Shown: piece by piece, positions 4,663 to 41,510 of the stretch
Layout: every line of letters starts with the position of its first letter
How positions within the stretch are numbered: position 1 is the stretch's first letter
DNA from: a virus
Taxonomy: Duplodnaviria; Heunggongvirae; Uroviricota; Caudoviricetes
Direction: 5' to 3' (one strand)
Length of the DNA stretch: 51,075 nucleotides
IMG/VR virus record: IMGVR_UViG_2872698443_000004
Location: 1 to 51,075 of that record
Notes under the pieces: model-generated
What the model saw: the letters and a program-made list of their open reading frames with translations, nothing else
Told to the model about the DNA's origin: nothing
Database searches by the model: none
Position numbers and translations under genes: made by a program

Positions 4663-5631
4663 TTAGTAGGTTATTTTTGTTGCGAATACTTCGCCTTTTA
4701 CGATGGCTGTTATGATATTTTTAGCAACATCTTCTGATGCGCCAACCTTGATAAGGTCAGCAAGTATTTTGTTATTTACTTCTTTCCGGTGAGCTTTATC
4801 CTTTGCTCTACGCTCTTCTTCGTCCTTGATTCTTTTTTCTTCTGCTATTCTGGCTTGCTCTTTTGCTTCAGCTTCGCGCCGGATTCGTTCAGCCTCCTCC
4901 TGTGCTTTTCGGCGTTCTGCTTCAATTGCCGCCTGCTTTTCTCTTTCAGCTCGTTCTGCTGCCTCTTTTGCTTCGCGCTGTGCTCGTTGCTCGGCTTCAA
5001 TGCGTTCACGCTCTGCACGTTCCGCTGCGGCCTTAGCTTCTGCTTCTCGCCTTGCTGCTGCTTCAATTTCGGCTTTTGCCTTTGCTTCGGCTTCAGCTCT
5101 GGCTTTCTCTTCAGCTTCTCTTTTTAAGCGTTCTTCATGCTCTCGCTTTTCCTGCTCCGCTTTGAGTCTTGCCTCTTCTCTTTGGCGGTCAAATTCGCGA
5201 TCCATCAAAATCGCTATTTCATGGTCAGACTCAATTTGCTTTGCGAGAGCTTCAGCTGCTGCCTTAGCTTCTTCTTCGGCTTTAATTCGCGCCTGTTCTT
5301 CCTCATAATCAGTAAGAGGCTGGCGCGCCTTGGCTTTCAGTTCATCAAGGCGATCACGCACTGTCTTGCGGTTGGCATCAATTAGCTTTGGAATTTCCTT
5401 CAGTTCAGCAACAAGGTCTTTGCCAAGACCATCGAGATATGTTTTCGTCTGCGCAACTTTATACGCCAGAGAAGCGATCTCCTTTCTGCCCTTTGCCGTT
5501 GTGATATCAGGCACAAAGGACATAACTTCACGTTCAACCTTTTGGAGAATTTCTTCAATCTGGTCAGCAGACTGAAATACAATCATTGCATTTGCTTTTT
5601 CAATAACAACTAAATCTGTTACTTCACTCAT
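4663..5631 (-). CDS. Hypothetical coiled-coil protein with long E/A/K/R-rich repeat region
   Basis: 322 aa; GGAGGA SD; central ~150 aa of AEAKAKAE/REAEEK-type repeats; first gene after tL1-like terminator. Confidence 0.6.
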   Translation of the reverse strand: MSEVTDLVVIEKANAMIVFQSADQIEEILQKVEREVMSFVPDITTAKGRKEIASLAYKVAQTKTYLDGLGKDLVAELKEIPKLIDANRKTVRDRLDELKAKARQPLTDYEEEQARIKAEEEAKAAAEALAKQIESDHEIAILMDREFDRQREEARLKAEQEKREHEERLKREAEEKARAEAEAKAKAEIEAAARREAEAKAAAERAERERIEAEQRAQREAKEAAERAEREKQAAIEAERRKAQEEAERIRREAEAKEQARIAEEKRIKDEEERRAKDKAHRKEVNNKILADLIKVGASEDVAKNIITAIVKGEVFATKITY

Positions 5632-16536: not shown

Positions 16537-16611
16537 GGGTCAGTCGTATAAAGGTCATTACGGAAGGCTGTTAACCTTCTTATCGTGGTTCGAGTCCACG
16601 CTGTCCCGCCA
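16537..16611 (+). tRNA. tRNA, anticodon GUU (Asn) by manual fold
   Basis: 75 nt cloverleaf: acceptor with one mismatch, perfect anticodon stem GAAGG/CCTTC, loop CTGTTAA, T-arm CGTGG-TTCGAGT-CCACG, 3' CCA; D-stem weak. Confidence 0.5.
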
Positions 16612-16616
16612 AATAT

Positions 16617-16692
16617 GCTGGTTTAGCTCCAATGGTAGAGCAGTCGCCTTGTAAGCGAATGGGTAGCGGTTCAAGTCCGTTAACCAGCACCA
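16617..16692 (+). tRNA. tRNA, anticodon UGU (Thr) by manual fold
   Basis: 76 nt: acceptor GCTGGTT/AACCAGC, D-stem GCTC/GAGC, loop CTTGTAA, T-loop TTCAAGT, 3' ACCA. Confidence 0.65.
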
Positions 16693-18152: not shown

Positions 18153-18184
18153 TTTTTTTGCAAATCACAAAGTCCATTTAATGA

Positions 18185-18208
18185 GCCTCGCGATGCGGGG
18201 CTTTTTTA
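18185..18208 (+). terminator. Rho-independent terminator after lysis cassette
   Basis: GCCTCGC-GAT-GCGGGGC hairpin followed by TTTTTT. Confidence 0.5.
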
Positions 18209-18351
18209 TATCTGAATTTCACAGCGCATCTCACGCGCATATTAACGAGAGCCTTTCAGTAAGCGAGCCTGAGAAATGCCGTTATAGGTGGCGACCTCTC
18301 TCGGGCGGCTTTTCTGTGAGACAGGCTCACTTTCTAAAAGGTAAAGACGCT

Positions 18352-18870
18352 ATGAATCATCAATTGGCTAATCTCGATTTCCGGGACATGGTGGTTGTTT
18401 CTGGTGATCGCGTGATCACAACCTCCCGCAAGGTAGCAGCTTACTTCGACAAGCAGCATCACCACATCATTCAGAAAATCGAAAAGCTAGACTGTTCGGA
18501 TGAATTTCTAACCAGCAACTTTTCGCGGGTTACCTATGAACACAAGGGTAATCAGTATGTTGAATATGAAATTTCCAAAGACGGTGCGATGTACATCATC
18601 ATGTCGTTTACCGGCAAAAAAGCTGCCGCCATCAAAGAGGCGTTTATCAAAGCATTTAATTGGATGCGTGACAGGCTGATGGAGTTGGCTCACTCATACC
18701 AAAGAGAGCACAACGAGTTAATGCTGGAGTTCATGAAGGAAAAGGATGTTGCCAGTATGTCAGGACGCTTGCTGAACCGCTGGGGCAGGATCAAAAAACC
18801 GCAACTCATAGCAAGAATCGAAAGGCTTGAGCAGCAGGCGCAAATATCGATCCCCGGACTGCCAAAGTGA
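18352..18870 (+). CDS. rha: Rha-family phage regulatory protein
   Basis: Start trimmed to ATG 18352 (track ORF begins inside the terminator); Rha-like N-terminal domain. Confidence 0.6.
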   Translation: MNHQLANLDFRDMVVVSGDRVITTSRKVAAYFDKQHHHIIQKIEKLDCSDEFLTSNFSRVTYEHKGNQYVEYEISKDGAMYIIMSFTGKKAAAIKEAFIKAFNWMRDRLMELAHSYQREHNELMLEFMKEKDVASMSGRLLNRWGRIKKPQLIARIERLEQQAQISIPGLPK

Positions 18871-19291
18871 CCATTCCAAAGCCCATCTACTGGTGGGCTT
18901 GATAATGAAACCGTGATTTACATCCCTCACAATCCAGGTATGTAAAAGCTGGATCATGCGAGAACGGATTTAACTAAATCTGTACGCCACCAGTTAACGG
19001 CAGTACCACGAAGCAACCCAAGCCAGAAAGTGGGGAAATAACACTGGCAGCCACTGAAAGATGAACCTCCTGCCTTATGGCAAAAAAGATTCTTTGTGGT
19101 GGCGGACTGATGGAAAGACATCGGTTATTGCAGAGACCATTCAATGAGTGGTCTCGACAATGGCTTATACCCTGCACGGGATAACTTAACTGATATCCCC
19201 ACAAGCGGATAAAGAGGTCCTCAATGTCAGGAATCTACTTTTAGTCCTAGTAATGATGAACTAGATATCAGTTGAGTCGCTTGGGTGGTGA

Positions 19292-19528
19292 TTACGATTC
19301 TGCTTCAAACTCAGAAATTAGTTGATGAACACGTTCAGTATATGATGGGTTAGAACCTAGAAACTCTTCCACTGTCTGAATGGTTTCATCACCCTCCCAT
19401 TCAAAATGGCTCACAGGTGACGAATGACCAGCCCTGACTTGGTAGGAGCCATTGTCCAATTTGTCCAGGAATATATAAGTTTCATTATCATGACCTGTAT
19501 TTCGGTAAAAAATTTGCTTTGAGTTCAT
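19292..19528 (-). CDS. Hypothetical moron protein (78 aa), antisense to late operon
   Basis: AT-rich ORF with GAGGAT SD, divergent from terS with 24-bp spacer; sits in the lambda bor-type slot. Confidence 0.5.
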   Translation of the reverse strand: MNSKQIFYRNTGHDNETYIFLDKLDNGSYQVRAGHSSPVSHFEWEGDETIQTVEEFLGSNPSYTERVHQLISEFEAES

Positions 19529-19552
19529 TAAAGAAATCCTCTAGAGAAAACT

Positions 19553-20104
19553 ATGGCACTCACCGACAAGCAAGAAATGTTCTGTCGCGAGTACCTCATC
19601 GATTTAAACGCCACGCAAGCGGCTATTCGGGCGGGGTACAGCGCAAAGACAGCTAACCGTACCGCATCCGAAAACCTGTCAAAACCTGACATACAATTCA
19701 GAATCGCCGAACTGAAAGCGCAACGCAATGATCTTGTTGGTATTAATGCAGAATATGTACTTAATCGCCTTATTGAAATCGACCAGATGGATGTGCTCGA
19801 CATTCTCCTGCAAAACGGTGAGCTAAAGCCCATTAAAGACTGGCCTAAGGTATGGCGCACAACGCTATCAGGAATGGATGTCGTGGAGATAGTATCCGCA
19901 GATAGCGCCGCACTTCTGAAGAAAATCAAATGGCCTGATAAGGTTAAAAACCTTGAGTTGCTCGGGCGTCATGTTTCTGTTCAGGCGTTTAAAGACAATG
20001 TCAAAAATGAAGTGACTGGTGCTGACGGAGGACCAGTCAGAACAGAAATTACCAACTTAACGCCGGAGCAGGCTGCAGAAGCGTATAAAAAAATGATGGG
20101 CTAA
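19553..20104 (+). CDS. Terminase small subunit
   Basis: 183 aa; N-terminal [33 protein letters not shown] typical of TerS; directly upstream of TerL. Confidence 0.75.
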
Positions 20105-40366: not shown

Positions 40367-40801
40367 ATGGATATGTGCTTCTCAGCCACAACGTTGGCGT
40401 TTTATCCTCTGGATATGAAAGACGGCTATATCGCCGCCGGAACATGGCCGGATGATATCGTTAAACTGACGGATTCAGAGCGTGATAAATACTGGATGAA
40501 ACCGGCTCCGGAAGGAAAAGAACTCGGCAGTGTCAAAGGTCGACCTGCCTGGGTGAATGTCACTCTGCCTACCCATGAGGAATTGGTGCATCAGGCGGAA
40601 GTCAAAAAAGTATTTCTGATATCAGAAGTGAAATCGGAAACAGAGATGCTACGGACAAGACTGGCGCTCAAACGCATCAAGCCAGATGAAGAAGCACTTT
40701 TGAACGCCTGGTTTGATTATCTGGACGCACTGGAACTGGTCGATACTTCCAGTGCGCCAGATATTGAATGGCCTACGCCTCCGGCAGTTCAGGCCAGATG
40801 A
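40367..40801 (+). CDS. Tail fiber assembly protein (Tfa)
   Basis: 144 aa; N-terminal FYPLDMKDGYIAAG and C-terminal LDALELVDTS...WPTPP motifs. Confidence 0.6.
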   Translation: MDMCFSATTLAFYPLDMKDGYIAAGTWPDDIVKLTDSERDKYWMKPAPEGKELGSVKGRPAWVNVTLPTHEELVHQAEVKKVFLISEVKSETEMLRTRLALKRIKPDEEALLNAWFDYLDALELVDTSSAPDIEWPTPPAVQAR

Positions 40802-41510
40802 CATCCGGCGCACATGACAAAACTGAGACACACAAATATTTGCACTGGATTGCAAGGCTTTGTGCTATTCGATAGTTAAGGTGGATCACTCCACCTTTTC
40901 ATCAAGCCAATCCGCCCACCACTGCATCATTTCTCTGCGCTTATCGTGGCAGATGCCTCACTATCACACGGTGATGGTTCATTACTGGTTTGCATAATGG
41001 ATAGAGAACTGCGGATAAAAGATATCCCAAAACCCCAAAATCTCATCTTTAGGATTTGCAGAAAGGGAGGCGTGAACAAATACCTGCGCATGAAAGCGGA
41101 ACTAGTCCAGATGTGATGCTTGTGGTGATCACATACATCATTAACGATGCTCGTTATGGTGAGTTTGATGACTACCCTCTGAAGTGAAAATTGTGTTGTG
41201 TACCAAATTGCGTACCAAACTAAAATCACAAATCATGAAACCCTTGTTCATGGCGGTTCTCAGGGGTGTTGCGCGTAATCGTGAAACAAAAAGGTAGATT
41301 GTTGCTTACCGTCATTCATCATTAGGTTAAATCCGTTATTTCTGCTGTCTGCCAGAGTATCAAATATCACCGTACTAATCAGCTTTAGCGCCACAAGATC
41401 ATGTCAGATAAAAATGAGAGGGTAGTCACATTTTCTTGCACTTTATTCCAGCCAGTTCATAAGTATTTCCGTAAAAAGAACAGCTATTTGAAACTCCTGA
41501 GGGTTTGCTG

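Follow-up and report, generated by a model that had tools for sequence, protein, structure and literature searches.

An orf78 cassette divergent from terS in a lambdoid prophage occupies an exchangeable slot related to the pid moron locus of P22 and BTP1

The DNA analyzed here, hereafter called the window, is a stretch of 51,075 nucleotides (nt; positions 1 to 51,075 of IMG/VR virus record IMGVR_UViG_2872698443_000004) representing a lambdoid prophage with its late region on the plus strand. The late genes follow the order holin (16935), endolysin (17242), Rz/Rz1 (17715/17884), rha (18181–18870), terS, terL, and portal, and between rha and terS the minus strand carries orf78 (19292–19528), which has an ATG start and encodes 78 amino acids (aa). 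The terminase small subunit gene terS (19553–20104, plus strand) was assigned to Terminase_2 (Pfam E 7e-40) and by PHROG, and its 5' part also serves as the sequence upstream of the divergent gene. A sequence-only reading of this region had described an AT-rich open reading frame (ORF) of 78 aa on the opposite strand, with a good Shine-Dalgarno sequence and a start 24 bp from that of terS, and all of these points were borne out. The G+C content of orf78 is 39% compared with 49.7% for the window (40–41% in sliding windows across 19200–19600), the Shine-Dalgarno sequence AGAGGA on the minus strand (plus-strand TCCTCT, 19537–19542) lies 8 nt before the ATG, and exactly 24 nt (19529–19552) separate the two start codons. 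Because just 24 nt are available, the leader of the orf78 mRNA must overlap terS, as the same reading had suggested for the two 5' regions.

Comparison with homologues demonstrated that orf78 is a genuine, selectively maintained protein-coding gene, in agreement with the ORF call and the confident predicted structure. Against homologues of 60–81% aa identity, the differences fell mostly at third codon positions (for example, 9/5/35 at positions 1/2/3), and the ratio of nonsynonymous to synonymous substitution rates (dN/dS) was 0.046–0.068 where dS was unsaturated. Ratios close to 1 or higher were obtained for most other reading frames of the same DNA; the antisense frame whose third positions coincide with those of orf78 gave a low ratio, which is an expected artefact, and has no long ORF. 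Length and start codon were kept in relatives down to approximately 30% identity.

The gene is part of a cassette of 314 bp (approximately 19239–19552) composed of a 53-nt tail, the 237-nt ORF, and a 24-nt spacer. At the left junction (approximately 19239), similarity to loci with other cassettes stops after ATGTCAGGAATCTAC, immediately after a five-codon stump of a small gene (19224–19244, plus strand; MSGIYF and stop, ATG TCA GGA ATC TAC TTT TAG) that was recognized by comparison with relatives. The right junction is the terS ATG, where identity among cassette types resumes exactly. The spacer (19529–19552) differs in sequence between cassette types and holds back-to-back ribosome-binding sites, AGAGGA for orf78 and AGAGA (19543–19547) for terS. 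The 3' untranslated stretch (19239–19291, minus strand) is also cassette-specific, folding revealed only a weak A+T-rich hairpin in it, and the terminator scan gave no match there; the homologues in loci L004 and L006 have stronger 3' hairpins. The single match of the terminator scan (minus strand, 19087–19066) is a weak stem with three G-C pairs outside the cassette tail. As a separate observation, the parent gene of the stump encodes approximately 58 aa (MSDIYQIMLTTQTGETF...) on the plus strand, with an intact copy in each of L003, L027, and L010, convergent with the cassette there.

In the classical definition, a moron is autonomous and brings both a promoter and a terminator. The sequence-only reading had called orf78 an antisense moron, and this description holds in part. 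The gene is accessory cargo in a variable slot antisense to the late operon, and it shows the deviant composition (39% versus 49.7% G+C) and patchy distribution (11 of 5,426 genomes) of a moron. It is not an autonomous unit, being a cassette without a promoter or a convincing terminator: scans found neither inside the 314 bp, and there is no room for a promoter in a unit that holds just a 53-nt tail, the ORF, and a 24-nt spacer. Its promoter appears to be borrowed, most likely from inside terS.

A 601-nt query spanning the slot matched P22 and BTP1 in two pieces that left orf78 itself uncovered, and in BTP1 the annotated gene between the two pieces is pid, on the minus strand. In the alignment with both phages, the left block extends from window position 18988 to approximately 19180 and corresponds to P22 'orf25', while the right block starts exactly at the terS ATG; these flanks are 91–95% identical. 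By this alignment, the orf78 slot is a homologue of the P22/BTP1 pid moron locus, which was named a moron because related phages hold another insert or none at that place (PMC3573128).

To describe the contents of the slot more broadly, 90 loci were tabulated, comprising 80 IMG/VR contigs fetched with terS, the window, and nine loci fetched earlier. A divergent ORF starting 0–30 nt from the terS ATG was present in 74 of them, and the other 16 were cassette-less, with the conserved left element running straight into the terS ribosome-binding site in such relatives. Clustering of 63 cassettes from the IMG/VR set yielded 19 mutually unrelated clusters. Other Escherichia coli prophages with the same flanks carried unrelated divergent ORFs of 72, 90 (with two predicted membrane spans), and 143 aa, located 20–24 nt from the terS ATG. 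The slot is hypervariable: across prophages whose terS genes are related, it is occupied by no fewer than 19 mutually unrelated genes. When representatives of ten other cassette types were searched against Pfam, one matched at the curated threshold (DUF2158) and three others below it, and none matched PADLOC models. The cassette types in the slot include ones for a 182-aa protein (L031), for proteins of 174–190 aa with a weak HEPN-like match (L098/L073), and for two small proteins predicted to lie in the membrane (92 and 81 aa; L043 and L048), all of them without a PADLOC match.

Comparison with P22 indicated where a promoter for such cassettes might lie. In P22, the right block is what remains of the 5' part of a Terminase_2 gene after decay, its ATG changed to GTG and its frame broken; beyond it lie orf80, orf59c, and gene 3, which is unrelated. 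The transcription start of P22 pid was mapped 174 nt upstream of the start codon (Wolput et al., PMC8835761), and aligning P22 (NC_002371.2, approximately 40,706–40,960) with window positions 19553–19760 placed the pid promoter, the transcription start, and the 174-nt 5' untranslated region (UTR) all within this terS fossil. The word 'terminase' is absent from the two pid papers (PMC3573128 and PMC8835761). The pid promoter can be aligned base for base with living terS genes, in which it falls on codons 50–59, with the -10 hexamer on codons 50–51. In the window, alignment and codon usage identified the candidate -10 hexamer GATTCT (19700–19705, minus strand; terS Arg50-Ile51, AGA ATC) as the homologue of the P22 Ppid -10 hexamer AATCCT, and homology identified a candidate -35 hexamer, TTGCGT (19723–19728, minus strand), 17 nt upstream of it, corresponding to TTGCTT at the same spacing in P22. 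Some terS alleles, such as those of L101 and L105, read AATCCT itself. In P22, where this hexamer is eroded, the substitutions C-182A and C-183A raised pid expression four- to six-fold (PMC8835761). From these positions, the orf78 transcription start is predicted near 19692, with a leader of approximately 164 nt antisense to terS codons 1–47.

Codon usage in terS was examined at this site. The final T of the -10 hexamer, an invariant -10 position, exists only when Arg50 is encoded by AGA or AGG. These codons were used at Arg50 in 61 of 63 distinct terS alleles, whereas AGR accounted for 15/369 (4%) at other conserved Arg columns. AGR was present at Arg50 in 73 of the 74 cassette-bearing loci versus one of the 16 cassette-less loci (13 with CGN and two with another residue), and the cassette-less alleles read AATGCG, AATACG, or GATCCG at the -10 position. 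Synonymous diversity at terS codons 51–60 was 0.20 in the cassette-bearing clade versus 0.46 in the cassette-less clade. Where orf78 homologues or pid lie beside a foreign terminase (L003, L027, and P22), they carry a terS 5' fragment along with them. The promoter hexamers are conserved and tied to cassette presence, and from the alignments we infer that a weak promoter embedded in terS drives exchangeable promoterless cargo.

Folding of the predicted leader gave a putative hairpin (19555–19595, minus strand) extending from the terS start codon to codon 15, of which 19595 is the first base. Its free energy was -19.4 kcal/mol (z -3.6) on the minus strand and -13.7 kcal/mol (z -2.2) on the plus strand, and in an alignment of 21 distinct sequences 96.7% of cells were paired. 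The hairpin is also predicted in the P22 pid leader, and the part of that leader holding it is needed for a second, shorter pid transcript (Wolput et al., PMC8835761). Among the 63 terS alleles, synonymous diversity at codons 11–30 (19583–19642) was 0.05–0.08, compared with 0.25–0.46 elsewhere in the gene; possible reasons for this dip are an RNA element in the leader, a boundary of recombination, and limits imposed by translation initiation.

The product, Orf78, has an isoelectric point (pI) of 4.59 and a net charge of -9, and this acidity is conserved across the family. It has no hydrophobic segment or signal peptide (maximum 19-residue hydropathy, -0.33) and is predicted to be cytoplasmic and soluble; a membrane or secreted protein was ruled out by hydropathy. 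AlphaFold2, run on a 10-sequence alignment, gave a model with a predicted local distance difference test score (pLDDT) of 84.7 and a predicted template modeling score (pTM) of 0.69, in which four antiparallel strands (residues 2–52) are followed by two helices (53–77). Foldseek placed Borrelia Pur-alpha at the top (E 2e-3, template modeling (TM) score 0.58–0.60) and a PC4 homologue next, a modest fold-level resemblance, while its search of viral predicted structures returned no informative match. Judged from the model, Orf78 appears weakly PUR-repeat-like. Such acidity speaks against binding to nucleic acids and points to protein binding or mimicry. On the basis of charge, size, and analogy, Orf78 is most likely a protein-binding modulator or mimic, and an enzymatic or nucleic-acid-binding role is less likely.

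The homology and structure searches that the sequence-only reading had called for gave a small family of relatives and the PUR-like fold match, but no named family. A database of 5.8 billion protein clusters contained 13 relatives, all unnamed or 'hypothetical' and, where a source was named, from E. coli, and a profile search of 1.84 billion representative proteins returned 16 matches, about a dozen of which were true proteins of approximately 80 aa. The motifs E-x-YIFLD, VR-G-S, and EFL...V..LI.EFE are common to these true proteins. The gene itself was found in 11 of 5,426 complete E. coli genomes (1,022 of which matched part of the 601-nt query) and in 14 IMG/VR contigs; natural lysogens include E. 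coli PD7 (NZ_CP074047) and BY63 (NZ_CP090570). Orf78 matched nothing in Pfam (E≤0.1), PHROG, or NCBIfam, and no PADLOC defence-system model at E≤1. Nothing was found by tblastn across 50,697 phage records or by a scan of one genome per species, and a hidden Markov model search of the family against Protein Data Bank (PDB) sequences returned only noise (E≥0.25).

Close relatives of Orf78 are almost always encoded directly divergent from a Terminase_2 terS or its remnant. A Serratia member (49% identical) lies antisense between a spanin gene and Nu1 of a lambda-type prophage, and in L026 the homologue lies within a multi-gene island, 2.2 kb from terS. More distant members are single genes in other mobile contexts, namely beside an integrase/AlpA module, near a resolvase, or downstream of a methyltransferase/PRTase-CE/ORC-CDC6-like cluster. 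Because members occur in varied mobile contexts away from terS too, the family behaves as stand-alone mobile-element cargo and not as part of the packaging machinery. A Pfam/PADLOC scan of ten neighbouring genes in L005, L026, and L027 and of the ten other cassette types gave threshold matches only to DUF2158, YfbU, and DUF6173, domains without known function, and sub-threshold matches to HEPN, CxxCxxCC, DUF2441, and PFIN. In L110 (Candidatus Thiodiazotropha), a 39%-identical member (5001–5231) lies approximately 335 nt downstream of genes for an N6/N4 methyltransferase, a PRTase-CE protein, an ORC-CDC6-like ATPase, and a 322-aa protein, a cluster that may be a defence island. The locus of another distant homologue, L116, was checked for an integron array and showed no repeats.

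We assign a probability of roughly 0.55 to the reading as a whole, in which orf78 is a real 314-bp accessory cassette in a pid-type slot, with a promoter embedded in terS and a product that modulates a protein. Under this scheme, orf78 would arrive as a compact cassette of ribosome-binding site, ORF, and short 3' tail, without a promoter of its own. A weak constitutive sigma-70 promoter in terS codons 50–59 (TTGCGT, 17 nt, GATTCT) would transcribe it from a start near 19692, and the leader of approximately 164 nt would be antisense to the terS ribosome-binding site and the first 47 codons. The promoter would be available while late transcription is off, in the prophage or in an unintegrated carrier state, and convergent late transcription would override it in lytic growth. 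Orf78 would then most likely act by binding a host protein, or one belonging to a competing phage, and modulating it, much as Pid acts in relieving repression of the host dgo operon.

Regarding the timing of expression, analogy suggests that orf78 may be expressed in lysogens, and strong late transcription should oppose it because the gene is antisense to the late operon. In BTP1 lysogens, pid ranks in the top five prophage genes by transcription, with more than 100 transcripts per million (TPM; PMC7067206). In P22, leaky expression in lysogens is insufficient for the Pid phenotype, and the effect is seen only in carrier-state cells (PMC3573128).

A number of observations weigh against this reading. 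The proposed promoter is weak, with 3/6 and 3/6 matches in its two hexamers, and a sigma-70 scan of 18700–19900 yielded no site above threshold. The association between Arg50 codons and cassettes reflects mostly one phylogenetic split (the MAL versus the MAK clade) plus the singletons L097 and L029, and hence few independent events. In L026 a divergent gene is accompanied by CGC at Arg50, and in L027 only 32 terS codons remain ahead of the orf78 homologue, which is not enough for a promoter at codons 50–59. Downstream of 19292, neither the terminator scan nor folding found a G+C-rich stem followed by a T run. A weaker form of the reduction in synonymous diversity at the 5' end of terS is seen in the cassette-less clade as well, and for the leader hairpin the 21 sequences, which are too conserved, showed no two-sided changes and no covariation above shuffles. 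With respect to the protein, the best fold matches are nucleic-acid binders, and the idea of protein binding comes from charge, size, and analogy only.

Two alternatives concern transcription. An extended -10 motif, TGcCATAGT, was detected by motif scan over the terS ATG (19550–19558, minus strand), and a promoter at this junction would produce a leader of approximately 15 nt that keeps the Shine-Dalgarno sequence and would make the hexamers in terS irrelevant. No other -10-like site at a suitable position has a TG upstream, related forms are kept in the decayed terS fossil of L026 (TGaCATAAT) and in L006 (TGcCATAAT), and such a promoter would account for the retention of at least the first 25–32 terS codons by all orf78 homologues. 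However, matches of this kind are no more frequent than chance predicts (3 observed, 3.4 expected), and the hexamer is poor in L003 (AATTTT), L027 (CATTGT), L005 (CATAAC), and other cassette types. A P22 probe fragment without the region upstream of approximately -240 (Ppid232) was inactive (PMC8835761), although P22 has lost the CAT. We consider a junction promoter unlikely. Whichever promoter is used upstream of orf78, it must yield RNA complementary to the terS start, and the antisense RNA (19553–19692) could itself be the relevant product, base-pairing with terS over its ribosome-binding site and 5' codons so as to silence terminase in lysogens, with the ORF being secondary. The greater stability of the 19555–19595 hairpin on the minus strand and the very low synonymous diversity at terS codons 11–30 are consistent with this idea, whereas the strong purifying selection on the Orf78 protein is not. 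In P22, L003, and L027, moreover, what is left of terS is defunct, stands next to another terminase that is functional, and would offer no target, a similar though weaker dip occurs in the cassette-less clade, and the family is also found away from any terS, all of which make a silencing RNA very unlikely as the main product.

The other alternatives concern the protein. Orf78 could be a single-stranded nucleic-acid binder of the PUR-repeat/Whirly/PC4 type, forming a dimer like Borrelia Pur-alpha and acting on DNA or RNA; Foldseek independently ranks that protein first and a PC4 homologue next, and size (74–84 aa) and topology are alike. The net charge of -9, the pI of 4.59, and the family-wide acidity are at odds with such a function, as is the lack of matches to Pfam, including the PUR families (E<0.1), and to PDB sequences (below E 0.25), and we regard it as distinctly unlikely. 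Finally, the absence of a family annotation in any library and the rarity of the gene (11 of 5,426 complete E. coli genomes) might suggest a chance or decaying frame without function. The third-position bias and the dN/dS of 0.046–0.068 among homologues identify orf78 as more than chance; with ratios of approximately 0.05 at saturated synonymous sites, relatives to approximately 30% identity that keep length and start codon, and a confident predicted fold, this explanation is effectively refuted. The reading in which a promoter within terS serves a protein-coding cassette is the one we prefer.

A more far-reaching version of that reading is tentative and, on present evidence, rather doubtful as a whole. 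In it, the slot would be a fixed expression platform, integron-like but working by homologous exchange between the 230-nt left element and the terS 5' end, the 174-nt 5' UTR of P22 would be a fossil of this arrangement, and Orf78 would be the founder of a new family of small acidic PUR-like effectors that take part in conflicts between phage and host or between phages, for instance as a signal sponge or a mimic of nucleic acid.

Should a promoter embedded in terS indeed exist, it would account for the expression of tiny cassettes that lack signals of their own, and the long 5' UTR of P22 pid would be a relic of a terminase gene. On its own, orf78 is one more uncharacterised prophage cargo gene, and its value lies in its context: the slot beside terS is a concentrated pool of uncharacterised genes that are candidates for lysogenic-conversion, exclusion, and counter-defence functions. 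The kind of locus, a pid slot, was already known; of more interest are the size of the cassette repertoire, the hypothesis of a promoter embedded in terS, and the recognition of the P22 pid leader as a terminase fossil.

The left flank of the slot consists of a conserved structured element of approximately 230 nt (18985–19215, plus strand), which contains P22 'orf25'. It was 80–99% identical in 200 lambdoid phage records, including HK022, HK106, CUS-3, Sf101, ST64T, and P22 'orf25', and was present in 45 of 107 fetched loci. On the plus strand it folds into four hairpins with a minimum free energy of -71.4 versus -53.1 for shuffles (z -3.98), and no Rfam match was obtained for it. The element is modular, with different phages holding segments 1–138, 1–191, 1–231, or 143–231. 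One hairpin (19135–19157) shows an A-T to G-C compensatory difference relative to P22; variation was too low for a covariation test.

Elsewhere in the late region, the mechanical ORF of rha (18181–18870, plus strand) is 229 aa long, and its PHROG and Pfam matches begin at residues 57 and 80, respectively. RefSeq annotates rha at 172–201 aa in related loci, and the true start is probably later, at Met57 (18349). Two tRNA genes (16537–16689, plus strand) lie just upstream of the holin gene (16935), and Rfam searches of the whole window, with a relaxed threshold for 18800–19700, detected these two tRNAs only. In the closest sequenced phages (Escherichia phages vB_EcoM-606R2, -689R2, -611R5, and -683R1), the packaging and head genes match only from terS nt 370 onward (window 19922), and this alignment boundary indicates a mosaic junction inside terS at that position.

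Among known systems, the single PUR-repeat protein Pur-alpha of Borrelia burgdorferi (PDB 3n8b/3nm7), taken with the Whirly/PC4 fold class, is the best structural match to Orf78 by two independent methods and resembles it in size (approximately 75–84 aa) and in having four strands followed by a helix. The lambda gene bor, to which the sequence-only reading had likened the slot, is a lysogen-expressed cargo gene. The comparison is apt as regards position, as bor is likewise small and, on the opposite strand, immediately follows Rz, filling the place between Rz/Rz1 and the packaging genes. It differs in that bor is annotated as encoding an outer-membrane protein, whereas Orf78 has no signal peptide or hydrophobic segment, and Orf78 was rejected as a Bor homologue (BLASTP E 3.1, no lipoprotein signal).

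The closest counterpart is pid of P22 and BTP1, although it differs from orf78 in several respects. The proteins are unrelated (hhalign probability 0.3%), so that Orf78 was rejected as a Pid homologue, and the Pid/dgo phenotype cannot be assumed for orf78. The neighbouring terS is intact, functional, and 24 nt away in the window, whereas P22 retains just a fossil of it, with orf80, orf59c, and the unrelated gene 3 coming next. Furthermore, pid has a G+C-rich Rho-independent terminator (PMC8835761), whereas none was found for orf78. Against these differences, pid occupies the same place, after the lysis genes and rha and before the terminase genes, in the same antisense orientation. It shares with orf78 a homologous left flank (the orf25 element), homologous terS-derived upstream sequence, and homologous -35 and -10 hexamers; its insert likewise varies among related phages (PMC3573128), and its product is likewise small and acidic.

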